Assembly: GCA_000146045.2 (NCBI GenBank)
Contig: BK006943.2
Coordinates: forward strand, 192,001-256,000
Source: TPA_inf: Saccharomyces
Taxonomy: Eukaryota
Direction: 5' to 3'
DNA: 64,000 nt
How positions within the stretch are numbered: position 1 is the first letter of the stretch; every line of letters begins with the position of its first letter. The position numbers were made by a program, and so were the translations under genes. The notes beneath the pieces were generated by a model. That model ran no database searches, had not been told where the DNA came from, and was given only the letters and a program-made list of their open reading frames with translations. Shown here piece by piece: positions 531 through 25,309 of the stretch.

Positions 531-1466
531 ATGGCGGTTCAACAAAGAAAGAAGAAAGAGGGTAGAAAGTCCGATAAAAATGCCCCATCGGTCCCACAAG
601 TAGATGCATCATTAGACAAACCACTTGATATTGATGCTCCTCCTACTATTTACAGTGTTAATTTGAAACCAGAATATGGTACAGCTGCATTGAATTTGTC
701 CGCGGATTTCATCAGACAAGAACAGGCATTGGCTAATAAGTATTTGTTCTTCCATCCCGTCATCCTTGTTGTTCTAACCATTGGGCTGCTTATTTACTTG
801 ACGCCAAGAATTGTCTTTCCGATAAGGAATACAGGATCCGTTGCTGGATGGTTCTACCAGCTGGCTCGTATTAATAAGAAGGTCGTCCTCAGCGGTTTAG
901 TGTTCACCGCAATTGGTGCATCTTTCTTGTTCACCCTCCTCTCACGTGTATCTGACTCGTATTTCAAGTCGAAGATCAACCAACTTGTTGGTTCTAAAGG
1001 TGAGAAAGTTTTCGGCATCAATTTGAATGATTTGGTGGCAAGACATGAAACAAAGGATCCAGTGGTGAACAATACGCATATCATCGTTTATAGAGAAACG
1101 CCCATTGCATTGATTTCGTTAGCCCCTAACATGACATTAAGTACTGATGAAAATTTAGTCATGAGTGTTACTACTGTGGGTTGTCGTCGTGTATATGTAA
1201 AAAGTGGCATTATCGAAGATTTGATTGATTGGGCTATGCTACACTCCAAAAATATTAGAAGCAGCGGCAAATACGGGGAGACCATGAAACTCTTGATTGA
1301 TGTCTACTCATTCGATAGCACGCTTAAGGAAATTTTGAAGAAAAAAGGGTTCACTTATATTCAAAGCATTAGAGTCTCTGAAAATCGACTACTAGGCGGT
1401 TTGTTCGGTGTGAAGAAGGAATTATGGGGTTTGCAATTCCATTTTAAAGCCGAACACAAGGACTAG
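531..1466 (+). CDS. PHO86: PHO86 (YJL117W), ER membrane protein needed for ER exit of the Pho84 phosphate transporter
   Basis: 311-aa ORF starting at an ATG, with hydrophobic segments. Its position next to NCA3 and ASF1 matches chromosome X gene order, and the size matches the annotated 311 aa. Confidence 0.75.
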
Positions 1467-1859
1467 GATACTGTTATTTTTATAGCCAAAAAATGAAAAA
1501 AAACAGCATGGCATCTTGTTAGTTCTGTTGCAACTCGCAGGAAGTAACAAAATAAACACTATAATATTTCCATATATTTATATATATGTATACAAACACC
1601 TTGTTAACAAAAAAAAAATAAACGAACTAAAGAAAACCGTAATGCAGAGTACACCTTGAAGAGAGAGAAAAGAAAATCTTTGAATCCATAGCATAATAGC
1701 GATCAACGAAACTTTTTAAGAAGTAAAATGAACTGAAAGGAGAAAAATATAACGGAATCCCAATGTATAATAATAAATAGAGAGCGGAAGAAAAAGAATA
1801 ATAAGGGGAATTGAGGGTATCAAAATACAAGACATTCTTTTACCGAAAAGAAGAATGAC

Positions 1860-2873
1860 TTAATAGAAAACAAATTCAGCAGATCCAGATAAAACAGAAA
1901 CTGTGCAACCATCGGAACCATCTCCGGTGAAAGAGCCATCTTCATACGCACAGCTGCCCTGAACGTTAGCGCCATCGGATGCAACTATTTTAACGTTAAA
2001 GTTGGCAGCTTGGTTACTGTTGGGGTTTGGAATCAACGACAAGTATGTTTCTCCATTAGTGGAACCAGCACCTAACACTAGTGGAGCCCAGTTGCCGACA
2101 TCCGAACCAGAAGTACCCCAAATGCACCCATCTTCTGCAGATACACCGGCGTTGTTAATATAGTACTGAGCAGAAGTCTTTTTACCCTGCCATTGATAAT
2201 AAGTGTCTTCATCAACGACTGAAATTGGTTGTGAATCTCCACCATCAACCACTGTGGGAATCACCATGTTTTCTGATCCTGGGTAATCCGTCCTACATAG
2301 AGCAATGGAGTCAGACTTTTTGTTAATGGCCTTAGCAGATGTTTCATCCGTAGAACATAAATCGCTGGTATCAGTGTTGGTACGGTACAAGTAACCATTT
2401 TTACAGTAAAGACCACCAACAGATTTACCATCGCTTGGTTGGTCAGAAGGCCATTGAGTCTTTGACATTCCAGGTTCACATGCATAAGAACAGTAGTAGC
2501 CATCCTTACATTCGGACGAAGTGTTGGCATCCATGTCCATGACAGAGGCCCATCCACCAAATCCTAGCCAGTCCAAGGAAACTATACCGTTTACAGAAGG
2601 GAAGTCCGAACATTTGACAGTACCATCTTGGAATCCGCCATCACGCTTCTGTTCAGAGGTATCCTTCTCAGATGAGGACAATGTAGTGGTAGTAGCAGCA
2701 GATTCTACAGTACTAGTAGCGGCATTGGAATCTATGTATTGAGTGACAGTGACAACCGCTGGTTTTTCATCTTTGTGATGATCTTCATGGTGACTGTCCG
2801 CTGGAGCAGGTGCAGGGGCAGAAAATGCGACAGAAGAAAGGGAAGACAATATTAAAGCTGCGGAAATTTTCAT
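1860..2873 (-). CDS. NCA3: NCA3 (YJL116C), secreted SUN-family protein (SIM1/UTH1/NCA3/SUN4)
   Basis: 337 aa. It has an N-terminal signal peptide ([24 protein letters not shown]), a Ser/Thr-rich region and a Cys-rich C-terminal SUN domain (..[38 protein letters not shown]..). Confidence 0.85.
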
Positions 2874-4070
2874 TATGTGTTAGAGAGAGACGAGTTAAGT
2901 ATGTGCGACTATACTAGTATTATAATATTAAAGGAAAGTAAGGTACCGTCTATGAGGAGACTGTTAGTTGGATATCAGTAATGAGACGAAAAAGCTCGAA
3001 ATGAATGGATATATTCTTTTTGCTACTGGCAACTGTTGAATATTTAATGTTAAAACAAACTAACTGAGGTATATTCGTATCTGTATGTACACATATACTA
3101 TATACAGGAAAAGATAAGCAAGAGAGAGGATATCAACTACGAGAGCGATCGATTATATATCAAAAGCTGTCCGCTTTGCCACCCATAATCGGCGCTTAGT
3201 TTCGGAGTTCAATCATAATTCTACCACCTTACACTCAACTTACTCTTTAACTCCTATAGTATAATATCGCCACTGACCCCATATTAAAAAAATTTTTTTG
3301 CTCGATCTTCTATCCTCTTTAGGTTAATTGTCGCTGTTATTGTCTAGATTTTTTCTCGGAGATGGCGCATCTATTTGCCGTCAAAAGATCCTCTCATACC
3401 ATATTAAGTAAATTGCCTCCATTTCTTTTTCCTCGGGCAGAGAAACTCGCAGGCAACTTGCTCTCGAAGTGGTCACGTGCGGGTCTAGGCCTGCATAATC
3501 GGCCCTCACAGAGGGATCCCGTTACCCATCTATGCTGAAGATTTATCATACTATTCCTCCGCTCGTTTCTTTTTTCAGTGAGGTGTGTCGTGAAAGAAAA
3601 CCCACAATTAAACTTTCAACAACCGGGCGACTAGGAAGAGAGTAGTGGGCGCGGATGACGAAGGCTAAGGTCACTTCTTCGTTTCCTTTATTGGGGTTTC
3701 CGTGTAGCCTTCCCCTGAATAGTGTGGGACGTTTTATGAGAAGCCGTAAGAAATAGGCAAATTGAGTTATGACAAGTAGACATGATGCCGCAGCCTTGCC
3801 TGACTTTACGTCTCCTTCATGAATAAGTTTTTCTATCGAGTTCTTTTCCTTTTTTCGCCTTAATTAGCTCAATTAAGCCTGTCCTCACTACTTTTCTTTT
3901 TCTTATCGGCTTTGTGCCACACCTAACCTTCGAATGCTGTTTTATTCCGTTCTTACATGGGATGGTAATGCCTTGGCGAGAATTTCGATTTTCAGGATAT
4001 TGTCTTGGTGGCGTCTTTTGCTGTTACTATGTGTTTAAGAGAGAGCTGTTCTACAAAGAACTTTTCATTT

Positions 4071-4112
4071 ACGCGTTTTTTCCTTTTTTTTTTTTTCTCA
4101 TCCTAAACGCGT
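4071..4112. promoter_or_regulatory. Two MCB (MluI cell-cycle box, ACGCGT) elements in the ASF1 promoter
   Basis: ACGCGT occurs at 4071-4076 and 4107-4112, roughly 175-215 bp upstream of the ASF1 ATG. ASF1 is a known G1/S MBF-regulated gene. Confidence 0.45.
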
Positions 4113-4286
4113 AAATCTGTTCCCTTTTTCATGTAATGGGCGTACAACCGACGATGGAAAAATGAATCTTGCAATTTTAATACTAACACTTGGAATAACT
4201 CCAAACAGGTAAGAGGCTCACAGAATCTCGAAAGTGTAACAGCGTACTCTCCCTACCATCCAATTGAAACATAAGATATAGAAAAG

Positions 4287-5126
4287 ATGTCAATTGTTTC
4301 ACTGTTAGGCATCAAAGTCTTAAACAACCCGGCAAAGTTCACTGATCCATATGAGTTTGAAATCACTTTTGAATGCTTAGAATCTTTAAAACATGACTTA
4401 GAGTGGAAACTAACCTATGTTGGGTCCTCTCGTTCTCTAGACCATGACCAGGAATTGGATTCCATTCTGGTAGGCCCCGTTCCCGTAGGTGTTAATAAAT
4501 TTGTGTTTTCTGCTGACCCTCCCTCCGCCGAGCTGATTCCTGCGAGTGAATTGGTTAGTGTGACTGTTATTCTATTAAGTTGTTCTTATGACGGGAGAGA
4601 GTTTGTTAGGGTCGGTTACTACGTGAATAATGAGTACGATGAAGAAGAGTTAAGAGAAAATCCGCCAGCAAAGGTACAAGTAGATCATATTGTAAGAAAT
4701 ATACTGGCTGAAAAGCCAAGGGTAACAAGGTTTAACATTGTTTGGGATAATGAAAATGAAGGGGATTTATACCCACCTGAACAGCCCGGCGTAGATGATG
4801 AAGAGGAGGAGGACGATGAAGAAGAAGATGACGATGAAGATGATGAAGACGACGAAGATGACGATCAAGAAGATGGAGAGGGAGAGGCGGAAGAAGCGGC
4901 AGAGGAGGAAGAAGAGGAGGAAGAGAAGACTGAAGACAACGAAACGAATCTTGAAGAAGAGGAGGAAGACATAGAAAATAGTGACGGCGATGAGGAAGAA
5001 GGAGAAGAAGAGGTGGGGTCTGTAGACAAGAATGAAGATGGTAATGATAAGAAGAGGAGGAAAATAGAAGGGGGGTCCACGGATATTGAATCCACTCCAA
5101 AGGATGCGGCACGTTCAACGAATTAA
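4287..5126 (+). CDS. ASF1: ASF1 (YJL115W), histone H3/H4 chaperone
   Basis: 279 aa. The N-terminal core is conserved ([47 protein letters not shown]). The long poly-Asp/Glu acidic tail (about 4790-5040) is typical of yeast Asf1. Confidence 0.95.
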
Positions 5127-5312
5127 GAATTTATGGGTTATAAGATTAATGGTACCTGCAAGAGAGGTACACTTTATAAAATGTATAAATAAAAAAATAA
5201 CAGACATAAGATAAAGTCGGGTTAGGGCAACAGCTACGTAAAAAATAAAAGGCAGTAATATTTTCCATTTAAGTTGATTTTCTTATTATTGTCGTTGAGA
5301 ACAAAAAGAAAT

Positions 5313-5385
5313 TGGACGAGTCCGGAATCGAACCGGAGACCTCTCCCATGCTAAGGGAGCGCGCTACCGACTACGCCACACGCCC
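5313..5385 (-). tRNA. tA(AGC)J: tRNA-Ala(AGC)
   Basis: The reverse complement reads GGGCGTGTGGCGTAGTCGGTAGCGCGCTCCCTTAGCATGGGAGAGGTCTCCGGTTCGATTCCGGACTCGTCCA. It has a cloverleaf, anticodon AGC, the G3:U70 alanine identity pair, A/B boxes and no intron. A T-tract lies downstream on the minus strand. Confidence 0.95.
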
Positions 5386-5400
5386 TAATATTATTGATAT

Positions 5401-5493
5401 TGTTGTTTATCAAAGTGAGATACGTCAGTATGACAATACGTCATCCTAAAAGTTCATAAAACACATATGAAACAACTTCATAACAGAACGAAC
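5401..5493 (+). repeat. Sigma (Ty3 LTR) 5' fragment, truncated by a later insertion
   Basis: TGTTGTTTATCAAAGTGAGATACGTCAGTATGACAATACGTCATCCTAAAAGTTCATAAAACACATATGAAACAAC... matches the start of the sigma consensus. It begins exactly 16 bp upstream of the tRNA-Ala 5' end, the canonical Ty3 integration position. Confidence 0.6.
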
Positions 5494-5494
5494 A

Positions 5495-5544
5495 TGTTGG
5501 AATAAAAATCCACTATCGTCTATCAACTAATAGTTATATTATCA
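5495..5544 (+). repeat. First ~50 nt of a diverged delta (Ty1/Ty2-type LTR). The rest continues at 12115-12382, split by the Ty4 and solo-delta insertions.
   Basis: TGTTGGAATAAAAATCCACTATCGTCTATCAACTAATAGTTATATTATCA matches the delta 5' end (TGTTGGAATAGAAATCAACTATCATCTACTAACTAGTAT..TATATTATCA). Confidence 0.55.
5540..5544. repeat. Ty4 target-site duplication, left copy (TATCA)
   Basis: TATCA lies immediately 5' of the LTR TGTTGG. The same pentamer lies immediately 3' of the 3' LTR, at 11769-11773. Confidence 0.8.
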
Positions 5545-5915
5545 TGTTGGAACGAGAGTAATTAATAGTGACATGAGTTGCTATGGTAACAATCTAATGC
5601 TTACATCGTATATTAATGTACAACTCGTATACGTTTAAGTGTGATTGCGCCTATTGCAGAAGGAATGTTAAACGAGAAGCTCAGACAATACTGAAGCTGT
5701 GTTAAAGACCTATTAGTTGAACATGTTATGGTAGGTACATATATGAGGAATATGAGTCGTCACATCAATGTATAGTAACTACCGGAATCACTATTATATT
5801 GGTCATAATTAATATGACCAATCGGCGTGTGTTTTATATACCTCTCTTATTTAGTATAAGAAGATCAGTACTCACTTCTTCATTAATACTAATTTTTAAC
5901 CTCTAATTATCAACA
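5545..5915 (+). repeat. Ty4 5' LTR (tau), 371 bp
   Basis: Exact direct repeat of 11398-11768. Begins TGTTGG and ends CAACA. Confidence 0.95.
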
Positions 5916-7157
5916 TGGCGACCCCAGTGAGGGGTGAAACAAGAAATGTTATTGACGACAACATTTCTGCGCGGATTCAATCGAAAGTCAAAACAAATGA
6001 TACTGTCAGACAGACGCCATCATCATTAAGAAAAGTTTCTATTAAAGATGAACAGGTGAGACAATATCAAAGAAACTTAAATAGGTTTAAAACCATACTA
6101 AATGGTTTAAAGGCAGAAGAGGAAAAACTTTCTGAGGCTGATGATATTCAGATGCTAGCTGAAAAATTATTAAAACTCGGAGAAACCATTGACAAGGTTG
6201 AGAATAGGATTGTGGATCTAGTTGAAAAGATACAATTATTGGAAACAAACGAGAACAATAATATATTACATGAACATATAGATGCTACAGGGACTTACTA
6301 TTTATTCGATACGTTAACTTCAACCAACAAAAGATTCTACCCTAAGGATTGTGTTTTTGATTATAGGACTAATAATGTCGAGAACATTCCTATTCTCTTA
6401 AACAATTTTAAAAAATTCATCAAGAAATATCAATTTGATGATGTCTTTGAAAATGATATCATAGAAATCGATCCTCGTGAAAATGAAATCTTGTGCAAGA
6501 TAATCAAAGAAGGACTCGGTGAAAGTTTAGATATCATGAACACAAATACAACTGACATTTTTAGGATAATCGATGGTTTAAAAAAACAAATATAGAAGTT
6601 TGCATGGTAGAGATGTCAGAATTAGAGCCTGGGAAAAGGTTTTGGTTGATACAACATGTAGAAATTCCGCATTGTTAATGAATAAACTTCAAAAGTTGGT
6701 ACTAATGGAAAAATGGATTTTTTCTAAATGCTGCCAAGATTGTCCTAATCTAAAGGATTACCTACAAGAAGCTATCATGGGAACCTTACATGAATCCTTA
6801 AGAAATTCTGTGAAACAACGTTTGTACAACATTCCACATGACGTAGGAATTGATCACGAAGAATTTCTAATCAATACTGTTATTGAAACAGTAATTGATT
6901 TGAGCCCAATTGCAGACGATCAAATAGAAAATAGCTGCATGTATTGCAAATCTGTTTTCCATTGCTCAATTAACTGCAAAAAGAAACCAAATAGGGAACT
7001 TAGGCCTGACTCGACCAATTTCTCAAAAACCTATTATCTACAAGGTGCACAGAGACAACAACCACTTAAGTCCAGTGCAAAACGAACAAAAGTCTTGGAA
7101 CAAGACACAAAAAAGGTCGAACAAAGTGTACAACAGCAAAAAACTGGTAATTATTGA
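5915..7157 (+). CDS. Ty4 TYA (Gag). In this copy it is split into two frames (5915-6595 in frame 2 and 6582/6600-7157 in frame 0) by a frame break at an A7 run.
   Basis: A 226-aa ORF starts at the LTR-proximal ATG. A 185-aa continuation ends NRELRPDSTNF... and contains the Cys/His motif (CMYCKSVFHCSINC). The two parts match a single gag of about 414 codons if one A is removed from 6580-6586. Confidence 0.7.
5916..5933 (+). promoter_or_regulatory. Ty4 minus-strand primer-binding site, complementary to the 3' end of tRNA-Asn(GUU)
   Basis: TGGCGACCCCAGTGAGGG is the reverse complement of the tRNA-Asn 3' end (...CCCTCACTGGGGTCGCCA). It lies directly after the LTR terminal CA and overlaps the TYA start codon. 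Confidence 0.75.
7008..7014 (+). promoter_or_regulatory. Programmed +1 ribosomal frameshift heptamer CTT-AGG-C (TYA to TYB)
   Basis: CTTAGGC lies in the TYA frame (Leu-Arg), and the TYB frame (frame 1) is open across it. It is the same heptamer as the Ty1/Ty2 +1 frameshift site. Confidence 0.75.
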
Positions 7158-10100
7158 TACCGGTTCCGGAGTAAACATTACCAATGACAAAACCTTACTG
7201 CATAATTACGAAGACAGTAATCGCAGTACACGATTTTTTGGTATTGGGAAAAACAGTTCAGTGTCTGTTAAAGGGTATGGCTATATAAAAATCAAGAATG
7301 GTCACAACAATACTGACAATAAGTGTCTATTAACTTACTATGTACCGGAAGAAGAATCCACTATAATCAGCTGTTATGACTTAGCCAAGAAAACCAAAAT
7401 GGTTTTAAGTCGAAAATATACCAGATTGGGAAACAAAATCATAAAAATTAAAACCAAGATAGTTAATGGTGTCATTCACGTAAAAATGAACGAGTTAATT
7501 GAACGTCCTTCCGATGATTCAAAAATAAATGCAATAAAACCTACTTCTTCTCCTGGATTTAAACTAAATAAAAGGTCTATTACCTTGGAAGATGCTCATA
7601 AAAGAATGGGCCATACAGGAATTCAACAAATTGAAAATTCCATAAAACATAATCATTATGAAGAATCCCTTGACTTAATCAAAGAACCAAATGAATTTTG
7701 GTGTCAAACCTGTAAAATCTCTAAAGCCACGAAAAGAAATCATTATACCGGGTCTATGAATAATCATAGTACTGATCATGAACCAGGCTCATCATGGTGC
7801 ATGGATATATTTGGCCCTGTATCAAGTTCAAACGCGGACACTAAAAGGTACATGCTTATTATGGTGGATAACAACACGAGATATTGCATGACCTCCACAC
7901 ACTTCAATAAGAATGCTGAAACTATTTTAGCTCAAGTTAGAAAGAATATTCAGTACGTGGAAACACAATTTGACAGGAAAGTCAGAGAAATTAATTCAGA
8001 CAGAGGTACTGAATTCACAAATGATCAGATAGAAGAATATTTTATTTCAAAAGGAATACATCACATACTTACTTCTACACAAGATCATGCTGCTAACGGA
8101 AGAGCAGAAAGATACATAAGAACAATAATAACTGATGCAACAACACTCCTAAGACAAAGTAACTTAAGAGTAAAATTTTGGGAATACGCAGTAACTTCTG
8201 CTACCAATATAAGAAATTACCTGGAACACAAAAGTACAGGTAAACTACCATTGAAGGCAATCTCACGTCAACCTGTGACAGTGAGATTAATGTCATTCTT
8301 ACCATTTGGCGAAAAAGGAATAATTTGGAATCATAATCACAAAAAATTGAAACCATCTGGACTTCCTTCTATAATTCTATGCAAAGATCCAAATAGTTAT
8401 GGATACAAATTCTTTATACCATCCAAAAATAAAATTGTCACATCTGATAATTATACAATTCCCAACTATACAATGGACGGTAGAGTAAGAAATACTCAGA
8501 ATATTAACAAGAGTCATCAATTCAGTTCAGATAATGATGATGAAGAAGATCAAATCGAAACGGTCACAAACTTATGTGAAGCTTTGGAAAACTACGAAGA
8601 TGATAATAAACCAATTACTCGCCTGGAAGATTTGTTCACAGAGGAAGAGTTATCTCAAATAGACTCAAACGCAAAATACCCATCTCCTAGTAATAACCTA
8701 GAAGGGGACTTGGATTACGTATTTTCTGATGTTGAGGAATCTGGAGATTATGACGTTGAATCTGAACTTTCAACGACAAATAATTCAATCTCAACTGATA
8801 AAAACAAAATTTTGTCAAACAAGGATTTTAATTCAGAACTTGCATCGACTGAAATATCCATCAGTGGAATCGATAAGAAAGGATTAATAAATACAAGTCA
8901 TATTGATGAAGATAAGTATGATGAAAAAGTCCACAGAATTCCATCGATTATACAAGAGAAACTGGTAGGAAGTAAAAATACTATTAAAATCAATGACGAA
9001 AACAAAATCTCCGACAGAATTCGTAGTAAAAACATTGGGAGTATTTTAAACACTGGACTCAGTAGATGTGTAGATATCACCGATGAATCTATTACTAACA
9101 AAGATGAGTCAATGCACAACGCAAAACCCGAACTAATTCAGGAGCAGTTAAAAAAAACAAATCATGAAACTTCGTTTCCTAAAGAAGGGAGCATTGGAAC
9201 AAATGTAAAATTCCGAAATACAAACAATGAGATTTCTTTAAAAACAGGCGATACGAGTTTACCAATAAAAACTTTAGAAAGCATTAACAATCACCATAGT
9301 AATGATTATTCCACAAACAAAGTTGAAAAGTTTGAGAAGGAAAATCATCATCCGCCCCCGATTGAGGACATTGTGGATATGAGTGATCAAACTGATATGG
9401 AATCAAACTGTCAGGATGGTAATAACTTAAAAGAATTAAAAGTCACCGATAAAAATGTACCAACTGACAATGGAACAAATGTGTCACCAAGGTTGGAACA
9501 AAATATTGAAGCATCTGGATCACCAGTACAAACAGTTAATAAAAGTGCCTTCTTAAACAAAGAATTCAGTTCTTTGAACATGAAAAGAAAACGGAAAAGA
9601 CACGATAAAAACAATAGTCTAACAAGCTATGAATTAGAAAGAGATAAGAAGCGTTCAAAAAAGAATCGAGTGAAATTAATTCCAGATAATATGGAAACAG
9701 TTTCAGCACCAAAAATTCGAGCCATATATTATAATGAAGCTATTTCAAAAAATCCTGACCTCAAAGAAAAACATGAATACAAACAGGCATATCATAAAGA
9801 ATTACAGAATTTAAAAGATATGAAGGTATTTGATGTCGATGTGAAGTACAGTAGATCAGAAATCCCTGATAATTTAATAGTACCCACCAACACGATATTC
9901 ACAAAGAAAAGAAATGGGATTTATAAGGCTAGGATAGTCTGCAGAGGTGATACTCAGTCACCAGACACTTACAGTGTAATAACTACAGAATCTTTAAATC
10001 ACAATCATATTAAGATATTCTTAATGATTGCAAACAACAGAAATATGTTTATGAAGACCCTGGATATCAATCATGCATTCCTATATGCTAAATTGGAAGA

Positions 10101-11325
10101 AGAAATATACATCCCACATCCGCATGATAGGAGATGTGTAGTCAAGCTAAATAAGGCGTTATATGGTCTAAAACAGAGTCCTAAAGAATGGAATGATCAT
10201 CTAAGACAATACTTGAATGGAATTGGACTGAAAGATAACTCTTATACTCCGGGATTATACCAAACCGAGGATAAAAATCTAATGATTGCAGTCTATGTTG
10301 ATGACTGCGTAATTGCGGCAAGCAATGAACAGAGATTGGATGAATTCATAAACAAATTGAAAAGTAATTTTGAACTGAAAATTACAGGAACATTAATAGA
10401 CGATGTACTCGATACAGATATATTAGGAATGGATCTAGTATACAACAAAAGACTTGGTACTATCGATTTAACATTAAAATCATTCATAAATAGAATGGAT
10501 AAAAAATACAACGAGGAATTGAAAAAGATTAGAAAAAGTTCAATTCCGCATATGTCAACTTATAAAATAGATCCTAAGAAAGACGTACTGCAAATGTCAG
10601 AAGAAGAGTTTAGACAAGGTGTTCTAAAGCTACAACAATTACTAGGTGAACTAAACTATGTCAGACACAAATGCAGATACGACATTGAATTTGCTGTTAA
10701 GAAAGTGGCTAGACTAGTAAATTACCCACATGAAAGAGTCTTTTATATGATTTACAAAATAATCCAGTACTTGGTTCGGTATAAAGATATTGGAATACAC
10801 TATGACCGAGACTGTAATAAAGACAAAAAGGTTATTGCTATAACTGATGCATCAGTTGGATCAGAATATGATGCTCAATCAAGGATTGGAGTTATATTAT
10901 GGTACGGTATGAATATTTTTAATGTTTATTCTAACAAGAGCACAAACAGATGTGTATCATCAACAGAAGCAGAGCTTCATGCCATTTATGAAGGCTATGC
11001 AGACTCAGAAACGTTGAAGGTAACATTAAAGGAGCTAGGAGAAGGAGACAATAATGACATTGTCATGATCACTGACTCAAAGCCAGCCATTCAAGGATTA
11101 AATCGCAGCTATCAACAACCAAAAGAGAAATTCACTTGGATAAAAACTGAAATAATAAAAGAAAAAATTAAAGAGAAGAGTATAAAACTGTTAAAAATTA
11201 CCGGCAAAGGTAATATTGCTGATTTACTAACAAAACCAGTATCAGCATCTGATTTTAAAAGATTTATACAAGTATTAAAAAATAAAATAACATCACAGGA
11301 TATTTTGGCCTCAACAGACTATTGA
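7012..11325 (+). CDS. Ty4 TYB (Pol: protease, integrase, reverse transcriptase, RNase H), expressed as a TYA-TYB fusion by +1 frameshifting
   Basis: Frame-1 ORF. The track calls 7045-11325 (1426 aa). Motifs: IIDTGSG (aspartic protease), H..H..C..C integrase zinc finger plus DDE core, AVYVDDCVIAA (RT YXDD), and ITDAS..E..D RNase H. Confidence 0.9.
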   Translation, partial: RPISQKPIIYKVHRDNNHLSPVQNEQKSWNKTQKRSNKVYNSKKLVIIDTGSGVNITNDKTLLHNYEDSNRSTRFFGIGKNSSVSVKGYGYIKIKNGHNNTDNKCLLTYYVPEEESTIISCYDLAKKTKMVLSRKYTRLGNKIIKIKTKIVNGVIHVKMNELIERPSDDSKINAIKPTSSPGFKLNKRSITLEDAHKRMGHTGIQQIENSIKHNHYEESLDLIKEPNEFWCQTCKISKATKRNHYTGSMNNHSTDHEPGSSWCMDIFGPVSSSNADTKRYMLIMVDNNTRYCMTSTHFNKNAETILAQVRKNIQYVETQFDRKVREINSDRGTEFTNDQIEEYFISKGIHHILTSTQDHAANGRAERYIRTIITDATTLLRQSNLRVKFWEYAVTSATNIRNYLEHKSTGKLPLKAISRQPVTVRLMSFLPFGEKGIIWNHNHKKLKPSGLPSIILCKDPNSYGYKFFIPSKNKIVTSDNYTIPNYTMDGRVRNTQNINKSHQFSSDNDDEEDQIETVTNLCEALENYEDDNKPITRLEDLFTEEELSQIDSNAKYPSPSNNLEGDLDYVFSDVEESGDYDVESELSTTNNSISTDKNKILSNKDFNSELASTEISISGIDKKGLINTSHIDEDKYDEKVHRIPSIIQEKLVGSKNTIKINDENKISDRIRSKNIGSILNTGLSRCVDITDESITNKDESMHNAKPELIQEQLKKTNHETSFPKEGSIGTNVKFRNTNNEISLKTGDTSLPIKTLESINNHHSNDYSTNKVEKFEKENHHPPPIEDIVDMSDQTDMESNCQDGNNLKELKVTDKNVPTDNGTNVSPRLEQNIEASGSPVQTVNKSAFLNKEFSSLNMKRKRKRHDKNNSLTSYELERDKKRSKKNRVKLIPDNMETVSAPKIRAIYYNEAISKNPDLKEKHEYKQAYHKELQNLKDMKVFDVDVKYSRSEIPDNLIVPTNTIFTKKRNGIYKARIVCRGDTQSPDTYSVITTESLNHNHIKIFLMIANNRNMFMKTLDINHAFLYAKLEEEIYIPHPHDRRCVVKLNKALYGLKQSPKEWNDHLRQYLNGIGLKDNSYTPGLYQTEDKNLMIAVYVDDCVIAASNEQRLDEFINKLKSNFELKITGTLIDDVLDTDILGMDLVYNKRLGTIDLTLKSFINRMDKKYNEELKKIRKSSIPHMSTYKIDPKKDVLQMSEEEFRQGVLKLQQLLGELNYVRHKCRYDIEFAVKKVARLVNYPHERVFYMIYKIIQYLVRYKDIGIHYDRDCNKDKKVIAITDASVGSEYDAQSRIGVILWYGMNIFNVYSNKSTNRCVSSTEAELHAIYEGYADSETLKVTLKELGEGDNNDIVMITDSKPAIQGLNRSYQQPKEKFTWIKTEIIKEKIKEKSIKLLKITGKGNIADLLTKPVSASDFKRFIQVLKNKITSQDILASTDY

Positions 11326-11397
11326 TAATTAATTAATGAAGTTCTAAACACACAATGAATATCTGTTGAAGTACAATAATATATCTTTAAGGGAGCA

Positions 11398-11768
11398 TGT
11401 TGGAACGAGAGTAATTAATAGTGACATGAGTTGCTATGGTAACAATCTAATGCTTACATCGTATATTAATGTACAACTCGTATACGTTTAAGTGTGATTG
11501 CGCCTATTGCAGAAGGAATGTTAAACGAGAAGCTCAGACAATACTGAAGCTGTGTTAAAGACCTATTAGTTGAACATGTTATGGTAGGTACATATATGAG
11601 GAATATGAGTCGTCACATCAATGTATAGTAACTACCGGAATCACTATTATATTGGTCATAATTAATATGACCAATCGGCGTGTGTTTTATATACCTCTCT
11701 TATTTAGTATAAGAAGATCAGTACTCACTTCTTCATTAATACTAATTTTTAACCTCTAATTATCAACA
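11398..11768 (+). repeat. Ty4 3' LTR (tau), 371 bp
   Basis: Exact copy of 5545-5915. It is preceded by a purine-rich tract (AAGGGAGCA) and followed by the TATCA target-site duplication at 11769-11773. Confidence 0.95.
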
Positions 11769-11782
11769 TATCAATATATTAT

Positions 11783-12114
11783 TGAAGATTGGGTGAATTT
11801 TGAGATAATTGTTGGGATTCCATTTTTAATAAGGCAATAATATTAGGTATGTAGATATACTAGAAGTTCTCCTCCAGGATTTAGGAATCCATAAAAGGAA
11901 ATCTGCAATTCTACACAATTCTATAAATATTATTATCATCATTTTATATGTTAATATTCATTGATCCTATTACATTATCAATCCTTGCGTTTCAGCTTCC
12001 ACTAATTTAGATGACTATTTCTCATCATTTGCGTCATCTTCTAACACCGTATATGATAATATACTAGTAACGTAAATACTAGTTAGTAGATGATAGTTGA
12101 TTTTTATTCCAACA
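11783..12114 (-). repeat. Complete solo delta (Ty1 LTR, ~332 bp) in inverted orientation, with an ATTAT target-site duplication
   Basis: The reverse complement matches the delta consensus from end to end (TGTTGGAATAAAAATCAACTATCATCTACTAACTAGTATTTACGTTACTAGTATATTATCATATACGGTGTTAGAAGATGACGCAAATGATGAGAAATAGTCATCTAAATTAGTGGAAGCTGAAACGCAAGGATTGATAATGTAATAGGATCAATGAATATTAACATATAAAATGATGATAATAATATTTATAGAATTGTGTAGAATTGCAGATTTCCTTTTATGGATTCCTAAATCCTGGAGGAGAACTTCTAGTATATCTACATACCTAATATTATTGCCTTATTAAAAATGGAATCCCAACAATTATCTCAAAATTCACCCAATCTTCA). It is flanked by ATTAT at 11778-11782 and 12115-12119. Confidence 0.85.
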
Positions 12115-12382
12115 ATTATCATATACGGTGTTAAGATGATGACATAAGTTATGAGAAGCTGTCATCGAAGTTAGAGGAAGCTGAAGTGCAAGGATTGATA
12201 ATGTAATAGGATAATGAAACATATAAAACGGAATGAGGAATAATCGTAATATTAGTATGTAGAAATATAGATTCCATTTTGAGGATTCCTATATCCTCGA
12301 GGAGAACTTCTAGTATATTCTGTATACCTAATATTATACCCTCTATCAACAACAGGATTCCAACAATTATTTCAAAATCCAC
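12115..12382 (+). repeat. Continuation (about nt 46 to the end) of the diverged delta whose first 50 nt are at 5495-5544
   Basis: ATTATCATATACGGTGTTAAGATGATGACATAAGTTATGAGAAGCTGTCATCGAAGTTAGAGGAAGCTGAAGTGCAAGGATTGATAATGTAATAGGATAATGAAACATATAAAACGGAATGAGGAATAATCG...GAGGAGAACTTCTAGTATATTCTGTATACCTAATATTATACCC...CCAACAATTATTTCAAAATCCACCCATATCTCA aligns to the delta consensus at about 80% identity. Confidence 0.6.
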
Positions 12383-12399
12383 CCATATCTCAGATTTCA

Positions 12400-12520
12400 C
12401 ATCAGTATTGATTAAAATATTAATTGCTACCAGTTCTAATAAATCTAATGTTTACATCATATAGTAATATATCTTTTGAGAAATGTGACTGGCGTTATAC
12501 AGAAACCGAATTACACGTTT
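12400..12520 (+). repeat. Diverged tau-like (Ty4 LTR) remnant
   Basis: ..ATTGCTACCAGTTCTAATAAATCTAATGTTTACATCATATAGTAATATATCTTTTGAGAAATGTGACTGGCGTTATACAGAAACCG.. resembles the tau segment GTTGCTATGGTAACAATCTAATGCTTACATCGTATATTAATGTACAACTCGTATACGTTTAAGTGTGATTGCGCCTATTGCAGAAGG. I aligned this by eye only. Confidence 0.3.
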
Positions 12521-12734
12521 TAAATACTAATTATTAAAATTTATCCTGATAAGTTGATCTTTATTTCCGTACAGCACAACCGATAGAGGAGATGTTTAAA
12601 GTGTTTAAGCTCACTTTATAGGGTGAAACACATTTTGACGACCGTAAAAGGTCATTTGATTTGGTATTGAGGTCGAGAAAATATTTTCAAATAGTGAAGG
12701 ATACATTAAACACGCTCACAAAACAACATAAAAA

Positions 12735-12806
12735 TCCGTGATAGTTTAATGGTCAGAATGGGCGCTTGTCGCGTGCCAGATCGGGGTTCAATTCCCCGTC
12801 GCGGAG
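12735..12806 (+). tRNA. tD(GUC)J: tRNA-Asp(GUC)
   Basis: TCCGTGATAGTTTAATGGTCAGAATGGGCGCTTGTCGCGTGCCAGATCGGGGTTCAATTCCCCGTCGCGGAG matches the classic yeast tRNA-Asp sequence, with anticodon GTC. It is followed by a T9 Pol III terminator at 12809-12817. Confidence 0.95.
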
Positions 12807-13304
12807 ATTTTTTTTGGCCCTTGATGACTGTTCTGGTACAATTTCCACCTTGAATGAGGGTATAAGATACCGATGATATATATTCAGACTATTTCTACGA
12901 CACAGAAAAACAATCGACCAAGCCGTCCTTGAACATGCTGCAGAACTTCCTTTTTTTTATTTTTTTTGGCTCATCTACGTAATCCTATTATCTTTTATTA
13001 AATTTTGAAGCTATGAGTTTCTTTCCAGCGACTTGGAACCAATAGTTGACAGTGAGTGCATACTTGAGTATTTTCCCCCTACATTGTACAGTCCTCCTCA
13101 GACCTGGTATCCCTGTTTAATGTGGTCGCTCATCGGACTTTTCCGTCCGATAGGAATTCGCTCAACTTTGACAGGCGGAACTACTTTCACATCGATTTTC
13201 TCAGGAAAGACGGCGTAAACAAGAGAAGAAATTAACTTTCTACAGAAAGTACAACCATATAAACCCTTCGTAGAGCTCCAATTAGTAGCAAATAATGACA
13301 AATA

Positions 13305-19999: not shown

Positions 20000-22900
20000 C
20001 TAATCTAAATACCTATCAAAAGGTTCCCCTAAAACGTTTTCAACAACCTTGACCAAACCGGTCCTGACTTCACGTTCGATCTCTTCATCATCATCTTCCA
20101 ATAACTCAGCGATGACGGGAACGAGCTGTGGCAATAGAACTAACCAACTTTCACCTATCTTTGAGTATATCAACTTCATGGCTCTAATAGCCCATAATTT
20201 TTCATTGGAGGAACAGGAAGCTTTCATGTGTTCAACGATTAGTTTATTCAAAATTTGGTTATGCTCATCAACGCCACTATTGTTAGAAGCCAGAGCGCCA
20301 ATTGCCTTGACCAGGTACTTCCCAATAGAGTTTTCTATATTAGATAGTTGATTGACCAAGGATACAGAAATTAACTCGAATCTGGAAGTTGATTTCCAGT
20401 ATTCGTCTCTATCAAACTTTAGCGAAGAGGTTAGAGAGTTGATTACCAAACGTCTTAAATTAACGTTTTCCATGTCCTTGCTAATGAATCTTTTTAACAA
20501 CATATCAACAGGTTCTAACAAATACGTGAAATAGGAAGTAATTATACCTCTCAAATTTTCTTGAAGCTTGTTGAAAAATTTGAAAAATGCCAACAGTCTT
20601 TCTGTTTCAGTGATACCTGCATTTGTAACGCCTTCACCGTCAAACGCCCATCTTACTAATATAACAAATAGCGGTCTAAATACTTTGTCATTCATCTTCA
20701 GGACGTAAGAGTTGGAAATTTCGTGAACGGATGCCTCTATCCTACTAATTGTATTATTATCGAAACTGGAAATGGATCTAAATTCGAATAAAGATAATAG
20801 TAACTTAAAAAATATTGGCGATTGTGAGGTTGCGGATTTTTTATCAATATTTTCAACAGTGGATTCTAATGTACTCAAAAATAGACTAACAGCAACTGTA
20901 TCATTGGACGTTGCTATTTCAGTGGACCAAATTCTGAATAAAACTTTCAAAACTTCCTTCAAATCTATATTCTCAATTATCAATGAAATTACTGACAGCC
21001 TAATGCTGCTGTCAACTTCACGGGAAAAATAAATAACATGCAAAACATCCAAAATATTTGACATCAAGAAACTTGGTATCCTTTTGATTAGACCGGCGAA
21101 CAGCAACAGTATAGCAACTTGCAACTGCTCTTTTAATGGGTTACTACTATCTGCCAATGAAGCATCAAATAATTTAATAGAAGGTGGGACTATTTTTGGA
21201 TAGAACGCAATTGACTTGACTCCTAAAACTTGAACACAGTTAGTTATCAATGCCAACGAAGATATCTTGACCTCTGTCATATCAGAACTAACTTTTTCAG
21301 TAGCAAGGGTGAGGGCTTGAGTTAATATGGACCCCTCAAGCTTCTTACCATATTTGCTCACTAAAGCCGTCATCGTGTTCAATATTACTTGAGAAATAAC
21401 AACAGATTTAGATTCCAAAGGCATTCTGTCGAGCAAAACCTTCATCACATTGTTAACTATAGGAATAGCTTCAGAGCCTTCTAACTCGAATTTGGACCCT
21501 ATTACCAACGTTAGGTGGTATCTAATATCTTCATTAGTGGATGTACTGAGTAAGGGTAATACCGCATTAACAAACTCGTCAACTGGTAGAATTTGTAACA
21601 CATTGCCAAGCACCTTGAATAGAATCTCCTTTATTTCAGTCGTGTGATCTGATAATGATGTTTCAGAGTCGGAAGCTTCCTCATTTTCTTGGGAAGTTAT
21701 ACATGAAAAGGTTAATTCTACAGAATTAATGAAAAAAAGAACACCTTCTAAAAGGGTTCCAAATTCTTCCCTGATGTTTCTAATTAACTTTTTATCGCTT
21801 GTTTCATCTAACAAAACAGAATATACCTTTAGTCTTAAATTTCTCCTCACATCGTAATAATCTTGATCTGTTTCCTCGGTTATTTTATTGATAAACTCAA
21901 AGGTATTGTTCATAAATGTCAAAAATTCACTTTCCGAAAAATTCAAGACACCATTTGAAAACAAGACACGGGATTCTAGTGATTTCTTCTTTTCCGAGGA
22001 GCTCTTTGATGATGTCAACAATTTGATGATATCGAGTAAGTCATTCAAACCTGATAATTCCTCATTGACATGTAGATCAACGAGTAGGGCCTTAATAAAC
22101 TCAATTAATATTCTTGCCTCGCCAATTTTAAAGTTGACTAAAGCTGAAGAATACTGTTGTGCAATCAAGAAAAGGAACGAGCCCAGTGCCTTTACTGGAT
22201 CAAGTGTTTTGATTAACGTAGAAAATAATTTAACCCTCCTATGTCTTGGAACATGTTGCAAAGCGGTTGTGAAGCTCAACAAAAGGAACTCCATTTCCTC
22301 TTTTTCATTTCCTTTGCTATTCTTGATCAAGGCAGGGACAACAGTTAGTATCGTACGCTCAACAACTTTAGTTGTGAATTCATCATCTTGACGAATACTA
22401 TGGGCTCCCATAAAAGTAAAGATAGGCATTACAGAATGCAAAATAACTTCCGAACTTAAAGTAGCAAGAGATCCAATTACAAGTAATAGTTTGTTTTGGA
22501 CTTGCGGAGATGCAGAATTTCTAATAGCGGATACCAATATATCTGCCCTTACGTTGGTTAGTTCTGTACAGCCATGTTCCTTCAAGTATGTGATAGTGTT
22601 CAGCGTACAAGAAATCAAAGTTTCTTGCGCATATAAAACCGGTAATCCACCGTCTTGATCCAAAGTTTCCAGATCTGATAATAAGGAAAGTAAAGTGAAC
22701 AAAAGCTTTTCGGATCCAACATTTCTGACTTTATCAAGTGCTTCCAAAATAATCGTCAACTTTCTCAGGTGCAATTCCGCCAGTTGCGAAACCTCCTCTT
22801 TCAAAAATGCGTTTTTACTTGTTGATGAACGTCTTCTTCTTCTTTTAGAAAAGTCTGTCTGATCCATTTCGTTACTGATACTGTTTTGATTTAGTATGGA

Positions 22901-25309
22901 TACAAAAATATCGGAATCTAACGGCAATGATTGTAGTACACCGACTGTATCGTACGATGATTCTACGTTACTCGAAGAATCCACGATATTTTGGACGATT
23001 TTTAGTTTTTGAGCATTATTTAATGAAGCGAATATGCTGATAAGCCTCTCGGCAGCTATGTTAGCTAACTGCTCATAATCTGAGTTAAGAGCACTGAGAA
23101 CAAAATCGATCATGAATGACTGCTTTTCTTTTGGTGATACCAAATTAACTAAAGAGCGCTCAAAATGCTCAAAGTTTGTTTTATTAGCAATACAACTCTT
23201 TTCCCAACTAGATCTGTTTTCTAAGTAGTGGGAAATAAATTCCTCAAATAGGGAGGAATAAGAAGATGCATAAGTCGGACTCTTGTTCAGGTTATCCAAC
23301 AACACTGTCTTGGCATACGGAGAAGGTATTAGTAGGGCTTGATTAGCCCAAAACATCAAAAAGACTTTTTCATTTCTCTTTGGCGTTAAAATTCTGGATA
23401 TGTCATAATTCTCAGTAACGTACTCATTCAAAAATCCTGATAACCATGCCTCACTATCTTTGGGATTTAACATAGGAATGGTAACGTTCTCTCCGTAAAG
23501 TTTATCAGACAAAAAGTAGTGCTTAGTGGATGGTCTTTTAGCAATCAAGGAAAGAATCTTCTTCACGCCAGTCCTAACTTTTATAGAAGCATCTCGCAAA
23601 GCGCAAATCAAGCATGGAACTAAAGTAAAAATATTAACTTCCTTTTCAATACTATTAATATATTTTGCAATATTGTTTAAAGATATTAGCTTTAGCGCGG
23701 TTGGAGCGGCTGGAGATATAGTTACTCTTAACAAAAACGTTATTCTTGATTCTAAAGTAGTGAAAAATGAAGTCAAGAAGGAACTTGCTTTATAGCCTTT
23801 ACCAATAGCTTCAGTGAATAAAGATAAAACCTTTTTGTATCTTTCTCCAGTTTCTGTTAGCATGGACACATTCGTTGTGTTTATCAATTCTGAATGCTTA
23901 TCCAAGAATGTTTGAAATGAAGCGGTATCCTTTTTAGTAGTTTCCACGGGGTCGCTTAACTGCTTTACAATGTCGGTGTTAACATCGGCATTAGTGAACA
24001 AAGATGTAGTAAGCCTGATTTCGAAGAGTTCGCCTGTCAGTCCCAATGATTTCAAACATTTTAACACCAAATCTTCATTTATGGAGATAAAATATTCGAA
24101 TAGTTCTACTAATTGTGACTTGTCCTCTAAAATTTCGGAAAGGTAAATCAAATCAGTGATTATCAACCTAACTTCGTATCTTTCTAGTCTTATTTTTTTT
24201 AGTAGGCTAAGAATAATGTTCAATTTGGACCGATCATACCTTGCTATGGATCTTGTATAGGAAGTAATGAATTTATCACAAACTGGTTTGTCTTCCTTAT
24301 CTAAGAAGGTTAGTATAGACACAGTGTCGAACTTGCTATCAAATAACTTGAAAATTTTGGAAGGTAGCTGATCTACGTTACCTTGTCCTTTTAATGTTTG
24401 GAACAGCTTACAAATCGTGAGGAGTGCTGAATGTTTTGCCTCTTTAGCATCTAAGTTTGAAAGAATGGTTTCCATGGCAGCTAAGATAATTGTTTTCTTT
24501 AAAGGCAAAGCTGTAGCAAATACAACTAATATGGTATGTGCAGCTATTTGACAATCCTTTGATTTAGAGGCTAAAAGTTTAGCAGATATTTCAAGTAAGA
24601 TTGGAACAAGCTGATTCAGTTTTTCATCGTTGTTTGAATTGAAAGCAACAACGTTAATAAAGCAGCATGTTGTAAATAAAAGCTGGTTAGTATACGTTGC
24701 ATTATGCTTAATACATTGATCCAAATAACTGGTATAAAGTTTCAGAAAATCCATGTCATTAAAGAGCTTTATCATGGTTAGCGCCGTTGGGGGCTTTTCA
24801 CTTCTAACAAAATTCGACAAACAATTAAACAAAGGGGGCAACTTAATAATGCTGAGAATTCTCTTAAAGACAGGTGTTTGGTAGTAGTTGAGAGTGGACA
24901 AAAGCAGCATCTCTGTGTTTTTAACATGTATTTGAAAACGACGAACCAACCATTCTGTTGCATGTAGTGTAGGTGCTAAATACCATTTAGAAGAAGCCAA
25001 TAGCAAGTAAGCATTGATAGCATTATCCAAATCTTTAATTTCTTCTTTTGTTTGGACATTTCTATCAAGAGAAATGGAAGACTCTGAAAAGAGTGTTCTT
25101 GAGAAAATGGCAAATTTTGGCTCAATTTGGCTCAATTCTTCAAGAGCCTTACTAGCGTTTTCAAAAATGAAATCGTAATCTTGTGTTGCAGCCGTCTTTG
25201 AGTTATAAATCAAAGAAGCAGAATGAAGTTTTTGTCTTCTCTTTCTATCCAACGCAACAGTAGCATTGTTGGAAGCAACTTGAGCTAATTGGTCACTCAA
25301 CGAAGACAT
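20000..25309 (-). CDS. UTP10: UTP10 (YJL109C), SSU processome / t-UTP HEAT-repeat protein (HEATR1 ortholog)
   Basis: About 1769 aa of alpha-helical HEAT-repeat protein with no obvious enzymatic motifs. Its position between GZF3 and PRM10 and its size match. The track start at 25315 is TTG. The first ATG is at 25309 (MSSLSDQLAQ..). Confidence 0.8.
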   Translation of the reverse strand: MSSLSDQLAQVASNNATVALDRKRRQKLHSASLIYNSKTAATQDYDFIFENASKALEELSQIEPKFAIFSRTLFSESSISLDRNVQTKEEIKDLDNAINAYLLLASSKWYLAPTLHATEWLVRRFQIHVKNTEMLLLSTLNYYQTPVFKRILSIIKLPPLFNCLSNFVRSEKPPTALTMIKLFNDMDFLKLYTSYLDQCIKHNATYTNQLLFTTCCFINVVAFNSNNDEKLNQLVPILLEISAKLLASKSKDCQIAAHTILVVFATALPLKKTIILAAMETILSNLDAKEAKHSALLTICKLFQTLKGQGNVDQLPSKIFKLFDSKFDTVSILTFLDKEDKPVCDKFITSYTRSIARYDRSKLNIILSLLKKIRLERYEVRLIITDLIYLSEILEDKSQLVELFEYFISINEDLVLKCLKSLGLTGELFEIRLTTSLFTNADVNTDIVKQLSDPVETTKKDTASFQTFLDKHSELINTTNVSMLTETGERYKKVLSLFTEAIGKGYKASSFLTSFFTTLESRITFLLRVTISPAAPTALKLISLNNIAKYINSIEKEVNIFTLVPCLICALRDASIKVRTGVKKILSLIAKRPSTKHYFLSDKLYGENVTIPMLNPKDSEAWLSGFLNEYVTENYDISRILTPKRNEKVFLMFWANQALLIPSPYAKTVLLDNLNKSPTYASSYSSLFEEFISHYLENRSSWEKSCIANKTNFEHFERSLVNLVSPKEKQSFMIDFVLSALNSDYEQLANIAAERLISIFASLNNAQKLKIVQNIVDSSSNVESSYDTVGVLQSLPLDSDIFVSILNQNSISNEMDQTDFSKRRRRRSSTSKNAFLKEEVSQLAELHLRKLTIILEALDKVRNVGSEKLLFTLLSLLSDLETLDQDGGLPVLYAQETLISCTLNTITYLKEHGCTELTNVRADILVSAIRNSASPQVQNKLLLVIGSLATLSSEVILHSVMPIFTFMGAHSIRQDDEFTTKVVERTILTVVPALIKNSKGNEKEEMEFLLLSFTTALQHVPRHRRVKLFSTLIKTLDPVKALGSFLFLIAQQYSSALVNFKIGEARILIEFIKALLVDLHVNEELSGLNDLLDIIKLLTSSKSSSEKKKSLESRVLFSNGVLNFSESEFLTFMNNTFEFINKITEETDQDYYDVRRNLRLKVYSVLLDETSDKKLIRNIREEFGTLLEGVLFFINSVELTFSCITSQENEEASDSETSLSDHTTEIKEILFKVLGNVLQILPVDEFVNAVLPLLSTSTNEDIRYHLTLVIGSKFELEGSEAIPIVNNVMKVLLDRMPLESKSVVISQVILNTMTALVSKYGKKLEGSILTQALTLATEKVSSDMTEVKISSLALITNCVQVLGVKSIAFYPKIVPPSIKLFDASLADSSNPLKEQLQVAILLLFAGLIKRIPSFLMSNILDVLHVIYFSREVDSSIRLSVISLIIENIDLKEVLKVLFRIWSTEIATSNDTVAVSLFLSTLESTVENIDKKSATSQSPIFFKLLLSLFEFRSISSFDNNTISRIEASVHEISNSYVLKMNDKVFRPLFVILVRWAFDGEGVTNAGITETERLLAFFKFFNKLQENLRGIITSYFTYLLEPVDMLLKRFISKDMENVNLRRLVINSLTSSLKFDRDEYWKSTSRFELISVSLVNQLSNIENSIGKYLVKAIGALASNNSGVDEHNQILNKLIVEHMKASCSSNEKLWAIRAMKLIYSKIGESWLVLLPQLVPVIAELLEDDDEEIEREVRTGLVKVVENVLGEPFDRYLD

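Follow-up and report, generated by a model that had tools for sequence, protein, structure and literature searches.

Nested Ty insertions and a putative recombinant LTR between divergent tRNA-Ala and tRNA-Asp genes of Saccharomyces

The stretch of Saccharomyces DNA analysed here (64,000 nucleotides (nt); GenBank assembly GCA_000146045.2, contig BK006943.2, positions 192,001 to 256,000 of the forward strand; hereafter the window, in whose coordinates positions are given) contains a cluster of Ty retrotransposon sequences between a tRNA-Ala gene and a divergently oriented tRNA-Asp gene. An earlier note on this DNA had read the cluster as a nested pile-up of insertions of long terminal repeat (LTR) retrotransposons upstream of two RNA polymerase III (Pol III) genes. 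This core reading was right, and the cluster was very probably built by repeated Pol III-directed integration together with recombination between LTRs. The number of integration events had been set too low, at four or probably five, since the window preserves traces of at least six insertions and one recombination. The recombination would have joined a young Ty1 LTR (deltaA) to an older delta (deltaB), giving the LTR that a Ty4 element and a solo delta later interrupted. The cluster is real, correctly delimited and already known, a textbook case and no discovery. Apart from a tau-like remnant all of its elements are in the S288C annotation, and our finding is a correct reading of a known locus.

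The structure was checked by direct reading, by BLAST, by alignment, and against the empty-site alleles of other strains. File S1 of Carr et al. 2012 (PMC3511429) supplied the LTR references (TY1-LTR, TY2-LTR, TY3-LTR, TY4-LTR and others). For the strain comparison, 20 loci of other assemblies (19 of them informative) were fetched via the ASF1 and MDV1 proteins; they are labelled here with L-numbers. The space between the 5' ends of the two divergent tRNA genes, as placed by ARAGORN, is 5386-12734, exactly the limits proposed before for the 7.3-kb Ty-filled region. BLAST and alignment to the published LTRs likewise reproduced all of the element boundaries and target-site duplications that had been proposed. 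The features, from left to right, are as follows.

5313-5385, minus strand: tRNA-Ala(AGC) gene, left Pol III target (ARAGORN; run of T on the minus strand after the 3' end)
5396-5400, plus strand: GATAT, left copy of the sigma target-site duplication; the right copy is deleted here (the sigma of L007 is flanked on both sides)
5401-5494, plus strand: Ty3 LTR (sigma) fragment YJLWsigma1, LTR positions 1-94 by match to TY3-LTR; its last 5 nt, GAACA, are the deltaA target
5495-5544, plus strand: interrupted Ty1-type delta, piece 1, 100% identical to TY1-LTR positions 1-50; its last 5 nt, TATCA, are the left Ty4 duplication
5545-11768, plus strand: Ty4 element YJLWTy4-1, 6224 nt (LTRs identical to TY4-LTR; Pfam domains in copia order)
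5545-5915, plus strand: Ty4 5' LTR, 371 nt
5915-6595, plus strand: Ty4 gag, truncated, going on in the next frame at 6582-7157
6999-7005, plus strand: Ty4 +1 frameshift site CTT-AGG-C, in the gag frame, with pol in +1
to 11325, plus strand: Ty4 pol, open reading frame (ORF)
11398-11768, plus strand: Ty4 3' LTR, 371 nt
11769-11782, plus strand: interrupted delta, piece 2, TATCA (11769-11773) followed by ATATATTAT; ATTAT (11778-11782) is the left duplication of the Ty2-type delta (direct reading, empty sites)
11783-12114, minus strand: complete inverted solo LTR of Ty2 type, YJLCdelta3, 332 nt (323/332 identical to TY2-LTR)
12115-12392, plus strand: interrupted delta, piece 3, ATTAT (12115-12119) and LTR positions 60-332, the last ~50-80 nt apparently from deltaB (mosaic pattern relative to L004)
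about 12404-12517, plus strand: degenerate tau-like (Ty4-family LTR) remnant, tau positions 13-130, with a 30-nt core of 87% identity at 12442-12471 (local alignment)
12735-12806, plus strand: tRNA-Asp(GUC) gene, right Pol III target (ARAGORN; run of T from 12807 on)

An interrupted LTR and its recombinant origin

The three pieces of the interrupted delta (5495-5544, 11774-11782 and 12120-12392) join into one LTR of 332 nt. Removal from the window of Ty4 with one TATCA, and of the solo delta with one ATTAT, gave GTTATATTATCAATATATTATCATATACGG, and this exact sequence is present uninterrupted in L004, L007 and L010. The pre-insertion sequence that the earlier note had proposed to reconstruct is thus found intact in these three strains, and the view that a single delta was broken by both the solo LTR and Ty4, each with an intact 5-nt duplication, is borne out by the contiguity of the pieces there. 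The Ty4 duplication TATCA lies at 5540-5544 and 11769-11773 in the window, and a single TATCA stands without the element in the same three strains. The solo delta is flanked by ATTAT at 11778-11782 and 12115-12119, and this site too is empty in them. Comparison with strains that lack the Ty4 therefore yielded exact empty sites. L010 agrees with the window to 100% over 12115-12663 (549 nt) and to 99.8% over 5127-5544; it is therefore the empty allele for both Ty4 and the Ty2-type delta, and carries the same chimeric delta uninterrupted.

These alleles also bear on the possibility that the nested arrangement is an artefact of assembling repeated sequence. Some assemblies of the locus do have gaps, and the Ty4 of L005 is bounded by runs of N. 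The window, however, is gap-free and all of its junctions show matching 5-nt duplications, while an independent chromosome-level assembly, L012, is 99.976% identical to it across the 8178-nt ASF1-MDV1 interval and the published reference annotation agrees (PMC3511429). We give an artefact practically no credence; because of the empty allele L010 and the near-identical L012, we take the structure of the cluster to be real and its duplications to be genuine.

The left end of the interrupted delta adjoins the sigma fragment. The fragment is 94 nt long (5401-5494, Ty3 LTR positions 1-94) and identical to TY3-LTR at 84 of 94 positions, versus 67% identity to the Ty3p LTR. Direct reading confirmed its placement at exactly -16 of tRNA-Ala, as had been claimed: 15 nt lie between the sigma and the 5' end of the tRNA gene. 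Sandmeyer et al. 1988 are said to have placed Ty3 insertions 16-19 nt upstream of the mature tRNA 5' end. Ty3 integrates 1-4 bp upstream of the tRNA transcription start site (PMC5911963), and the window sigma resembles such position-specific integration in its match to the Ty3 LTR (as a fragment only), in its place at -16 and in a 5-nt duplication that is visible in other strains. In L007 a complete sigma of 341 nt has GATAT on either side, and full-length sigma with GATAT on both sides is found in L001, L002, L005-L008, L014, L016 and L017. Beyond the complete sigma in those strains come a 25-nt spacer, an inverted sigma fragment of ~105 nt, and then deltaB. Unlike a typical Ty3 sigma, the one in the window retains only 94 of 340 nt, apparently owing to later Ty1 insertion and LTR recombination. 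A second, polymorphic sigma, at -17 of tRNA-Asp in L005, is also in keeping with the Ty3 position rule.

The interrupted delta had been described as old and diverged, but over its first ~250-280 nt it hardly differs from the Ty1 LTR reference. Identity is 100% over positions 1-125, and over positions 1-278 there are only 2 substitutions and a 6-nt indel (~97% identity). Overall the delta is 93.5% identical to TY1-LTR versus 79.5% to TY2-LTR, that is, of Ty1 and not of Ty2 type. It had looked diverged, at 80% identity to its neighbour, because the neighbouring solo delta is of Ty2 type.

The origin of this LTR can be followed in L004, where a Ty1 LTR (deltaA) is inserted after position 94 of an otherwise complete sigma with GAACA on both sides, and where deltaB lies ~1 kb downstream, beyond the same spacer and inverted sigma fragment as in the other strains. 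The deltaA site is unoccupied, with a single GAACA, in L002, L007 and L009. Over positions 1-249 the window delta has 2 mismatches to L004 deltaA versus 23 to deltaB, and over positions 283-332 it has none to deltaB versus 10 to deltaA. It lacks a target-site duplication of its own, with GAACA on the left and GATTT on the right, so that it does not have the form of a single insertion. Its left junction is the deltaA junction, and its 3' flank GATTTCACATCAG is the deltaB flank. Because of the left junction, the right flank, the lack of a duplication and the mosaic of mismatches, the interrupted delta is best read as a deltaA x deltaB recombinant in which a young Ty1 LTR is joined to an older delta. 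The earlier claim that an old delta was inserted into or next to the sigma would accordingly survive for the 5' part, which derives from an insertion into sigma (GAACA, L004), and would fail on its age and on its being one element.

If the interrupted delta were instead one old, diverged element beside or within the sigma, with four or five events in all and no recombination, this would account for the joining of the three pieces into one 332-nt LTR within the window and for its identity of only ~80% to the neighbouring solo delta. That figure, however, is the difference between Ty1 and Ty2 LTRs and not a measure of age, as the 5' 278 nt make plain, and such an element should not lack a duplication, take its left flank from L004 deltaA and its right flank from deltaB, or change from A-type to B-type mismatches between positions 249 and 283. 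We consider this explanation improbable and already contradicted.

The recombination would have removed sigma positions 95-340, the second GATAT, the spacer and the inverted sigma fragment (~400 nt) together with one LTR length. The truncation of the sigma might instead be due to non-homologous deletion, or to Ty1 integration accompanied by deletion, and the window does hold the end product alone; moreover, the B-site delta of L007 has A-like 5' sequence with no deltaA in the sigma. Against this, the left breakpoint is the L004 deltaA insertion site to the base, including GAACA, the right part and its flank are of deltaB type, and exactly one LTR length is left. A history of this kind is therefore very unlikely, and LTR-LTR recombination remains our explanation. 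The chimeric delta is common to L003, L010, L012, L013 and L015, and therefore predates both Ty4 and the Ty2-type LTR.

Ty4, the Ty2-type delta and the tau-like remnant

The Ty4 element is structurally complete and, because its LTRs are identical, recent. The two LTRs (371 nt, TG...CA, in direct orientation) are identical mutually and 100% identical to TY4-LTR; the sequence that follows the 5' LTR is TGGCGACCCCAGTGAGGGG; and the pol ORF carries Pfam domains in copia order, namely Pol_BBD (a beta-barrel of the protease region), rve (integrase, residues 245-346), SH3_retrovirus and RVT_2 (reverse transcriptase, residues 945-1156). Of the description as a full-length Ty4 with a TATCA duplication, the boundaries, the LTRs and the duplication stood, with the qualification that gag is frameshifted by one extra A. 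A stop at 6593-6595 splits gag into 226 + 191 codons, so that gag is not intact. The run of A at 6574-6580 holds 7 A in the window versus 6 in the Ty4 sequence of L005, which is 99.9% identical to the window Ty4 and has an intact gag of 413 codons. The Ty4 of L012 has the same truncated gag ORF of 226 codons, and the truncation is therefore not the reading error of one assembly. The frameshift is reportedly also marked in the reference annotation, as a mutant element. With this gag-breaking insertion of one base, YJLWTy4-1 is probably non-autonomous.

The same stretch differs in an older record of the element. Over 6574-6625, GenBank X67284 reads AAAAAAACAAAATATAG...CCTGGGGAAAAGG and the window reads AAAAAAACAAATATAG...CCTGGGAAAAGG, two nearby single-base differences within Ty4 that explain a 2-nt coordinate shift relative to sacCer2. 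There are thus three versions of the stretch (window, X67284 and L005), and gag is broken in the window version only. In the L005 assembly (GCA_000975975.3) the Ty4 sequence is placed near tRNA-Asp, inside the extra sigma at -17, with which it takes up ASF1-MDV1 interval positions 1402-8123. We considered this as a second Ty4 site and rejected it, as the runs of N at both ends make the placement untrustworthy; only the sequence was used.

Ty4 and the solo delta are 9 bp apart, as had been proposed, with ATATATTAT between the right TATCA and the start of the delta at 11783. The solo delta had been called a complete inverted Ty1 delta with an ATTAT duplication inside the interrupted delta. It is complete, inverted, flanked by ATTAT and within that delta, but of Ty2 type, with 97.3% identity (323/332) to TY2-LTR versus 82.8% to TY1-LTR. 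This assignment has already been published: YJLCdelta3 is listed as a solo TY2 of the active clade which, of 13 strains scored, just S288c and W303 carry (PMC3511429).

A tau-like remnant had been suspected downstream. When 12393-12734 was compared with tau, the local score was 51 on the plus strand, from ~115 nt at ~65% identity with no termini and no duplication. Though the match is weak, its score is above all 656 background windows of the same 64 kb (mean 24, standard deviation 3.5, maximum 41) and above 300 shuffles (mean 28, maximum 43). On this score the stretch is a probable ancient fragment of the Ty4 family. Searches of 12393-12734, 5127-5312 and 12807-13304 for remnants of Ty1, Ty2, Ty3, Ty3p and Ty5 LTRs revealed none above background.

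These elements can be set beside the published annotation. File S2 of Carr, Bensasson and Bergman 2012 lists YJLWsigma1, the interrupted Ty1 solo LTR, YJLWTy4-1 and YJLCdelta3 here, and makes explicit that YJLWTy4-1 and YJLCdelta3 are nested in one Ty1 LTR (197493-204392) (PMC3511429). The sacCer2 elements at chrX 197399-204392 map onto the window with an offset of 192000 downstream of Ty4 and 191998 upstream, and over chrX 197.4-204.4 kb the S288C annotation and the window are alike in elements, order, strands and coordinates (PMC3511429). The differences are that the table gives the interrupted LTR (REannotate chrX_s240) as one inactive Ty1 solo LTR with no mention of a chimeric origin, has no tau-like remnant, and has a Ty4 that is 2 nt longer than that of the window (PMC3511429). 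A literature text search for YJLWTy4-1 and the ORF names found no detailed account of the locus.

The locus in other strains

The locus is an insertion hotspot in the species. About 11 further independent events were found in other assemblies, with a 5-nt duplication wherever both junctions were assembled.

L004: solo tau inside sigma, duplication CATAT
L009: solo tau in deltaB, duplication AATAT
L009: inverted delta nested in that solo tau, duplication AATAC
L003: full-length inverted Ty2, duplication ATATT
L013, L015: the L003 Ty2 site reduced to a solo LTR, duplication ATATT
L001: inverted solo delta, duplication GTTAG
L006: inverted solo delta, duplication GAAAC
L013, L015, L018: full-length Ty1, duplication AGTAT
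L010: delta ~75 nt upstream of tRNA-Asp, duplication ATTTG
L019: inverted delta near window position 12646, single junction in the contig
L005: sigma at -17 of tRNA-Asp, duplication CAAAA

With those of the window this makes a total of ~17 events in an ancestral inter-tRNA space of ~1.16 kb. All delta and tau insertions, here and in the other assemblies, fall within the inter-tRNA space, in line with what is known of Ty1, Ty2 and Ty4 integration upstream of tRNA genes. One site holds a full-length Ty2 in L003 and a solo LTR in L013 and L015, and in this respect resembles known solo-LTR formation (PMC5911963). The full-length element of L003 was considered as an occupant of the window's solo-delta site, which would have allowed the events to be ordered, and rejected, since its duplication is ATATT and lies 13 nt upstream, making it an independent insertion.

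Four independent insertions tile TTATATTATCAATATATTAT, the 18 nt at Ty1-LTR positions 42-59 (window 5536-5544 and 11769-11782): the Ty2 at ATATT (L003, L013, L015), the Ty4 at TATCA (window), the tau at AATAT (L009) and the Ty2-type delta at ATTAT (window). With random placement of 11 copia-type events, four would fall this close with a probability of ~0.002-0.006, or ~0.01-0.02 when conditioned on the two events of the window. The clustering was noticed after the fact and is suggestive. It is conceivable, and we put it forward tentatively as the less probable case, that TTATATTATCAATATATTAT is a micro-hotspot common to different copia-type families, with Ty4 and Ty2 choosing the same few base pairs. 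Located ~620-640 nt upstream of tRNA-Asp, such a micro-hotspot would probably reflect either a bendable AT tract or a nucleosomal surface of fixed position. Four events in 18 nt are tighter than the general rule for Ty1, Ty2 and Ty4, and may simply reflect known nucleosomal hotspots. If true, the micro-hotspot would offer a natural read-out of Ty4 target choice, of which we know of no experimental measurement so far.

Several further observations were made at or near the locus. L002, L001, L006 and L008 differ from L007 in the orientation of the DNA that links the end of the -16 sigma to the inverted sigma fragment (ASF1-MDV1 interval ~585-660), which indicates inversion by recombination between the inverted sigma repeats; L009 has a deletion between those repeats. 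Comparison of window 12109-13304 with L002, L008, L014, L016 and L017 revealed two haplotype groups ~5% apart, which is high within a species, and the split covers deltaB, the region upstream of tRNA-Asp and the MDV1 promoter. L011 (GCA_033956085.1, CP135956.1) has the 34-nt palindromic ATAACTTCGTATAATGTACATTATACGAAGTTAT, a loxPsym-like site, in place of the whole Ty cluster, the two tRNA genes and the final 90 nt of ASF1 (equivalent to window 5037-12806). Its neighbouring genes share ~99% identity with the window, and it seems to be an engineered or synthetic chromosome X. The window's third tRNA gene, tRNA-Arg(ACG) at 41939-42011, has ~940 nt of upstream sequence with no detectable Ty LTR, unlike the crowded Ala/Asp pair.

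The flanking ORFs, named via other assemblies, belong in order to the Pfam families Pho86, SUN and ASF1 on one side and Mdv1, Cpn60_TCP1, GATA and U3snoRNP10 on the other. We take this to be the gene order of S. cerevisiae chromosome X from PHO86 to UTP10, and the tRNA genes flanking the cluster to be tA(AGC)J and tD(GUC)J; the placement on this chromosome is confirmed by the published coordinates of the Ty elements (PMC3511429). The equivalent of the gene at window 20000-25315 (a U3snoRNP10/HEAT protein of 1769 residues) appears in L010 and L013 as two separate predicted products (231 and 1501 residues), for which a frameshift, a real variant or an assembly error may be the reason.

History of the cluster and its significance

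The order of events that the window and its counterparts in other strains support begins with integration of Ty3 at -16 of tRNA-Ala (GATAT) and its collapse to a solo sigma, with an inverted sigma fragment, the old Ty1-family LTR deltaB and a tau-like LTR already present further upstream. A Ty1 would then have entered the sigma at position 94 (GAACA) and been reduced to the solo LTR deltaA. DeltaA and deltaB, direct repeats ~1 kb apart, would have recombined with deletion of the intervening DNA, leaving a 94-nt sigma stump joined to the chimeric delta. Last, and with either one first, a Ty2-type element would have inserted in inverted orientation at ATTAT (LTR positions 55-59) and collapsed to a solo LTR, and Ty4 would have inserted at TATCA (LTR positions 46-50). 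Intact duplications had been said to order the insertions. They do so in making the delta older than both Ty4 and the solo LTR, but Ty4 and the Ty2-type delta cannot be ordered by them.

Several processes can be observed at the locus: integrations with 5-nt duplications, a full-length element and a solo LTR at one site, an LTR-LTR deletion and, in some strains, inversion of sigma sequence. As to targeting, TFIIIB directs the Ty3 integrase to within a few bp of the Pol III start site, the Ty1 integrase binds Pol III subunits, and the insertion window of Ty1, Ty2 and Ty4 is ~1 kb upstream of Pol III genes (PMC5911963). Since integration is positioned relative to the tRNA gene, new copies land in older ones and nesting results.

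Several points weigh against this account. DeltaB has no recognisable duplication, and its status as an independent insertion derives from its distinct sequence and flanks. The intermediate with both deltaA and deltaB is found in one assembly, L004. The A-like 5' end of the B-site delta in L007 would mean that there has been gene conversion between these LTRs too, which blurs the A and B labels. The tau-like match, at the low identity and short length given above, is absent from the published RepeatMasker-based annotation (PMC3511429). Targeting by Pol III factors at this particular locus is inferred from the literature (PMC5911963). Lastly, the order of Ty4 and the Ty2-type delta is at issue. 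In the scores of Carr et al., K11, UWOPS83-787.3 and YJM789 have the Ty4, and two of these, K11 and YJM789, lack the delta (PMC3511429), which would put Ty4 first. We did not rely on these scores, because L009 carries an independent solo tau (AATAT) just 4 nt away from where Ty4 sits, and in low-coverage assemblies one might be mistaken for the other. When metagenome contigs were scanned for the junction of the Ty4 end with TATCA and ATATATTAT, it was not found, and hence there was no allele from them that would order the two events.

What the present analysis adds to the earlier note is the chimeric origin of the LTR, the already published Ty2 assignment of the solo LTR, the gag frameshift, the event count and the possible shared micro-hotspot. 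These leave the picture of how Ty elements work unchanged, as the elements, their nesting and their polymorphism have already been published and the targeting rules are textbook knowledge. The apparent single old LTR is very probably a recombinant of a young and an old LTR, in the making of which ~400 nt of unique sequence and one LTR length have gone. Such recombinants make LTR-divergence dating and insertion counts unreliable at hotspots, and the number of events accumulated in the ancestral inter-tRNA space shows the fast turnover of such a site.

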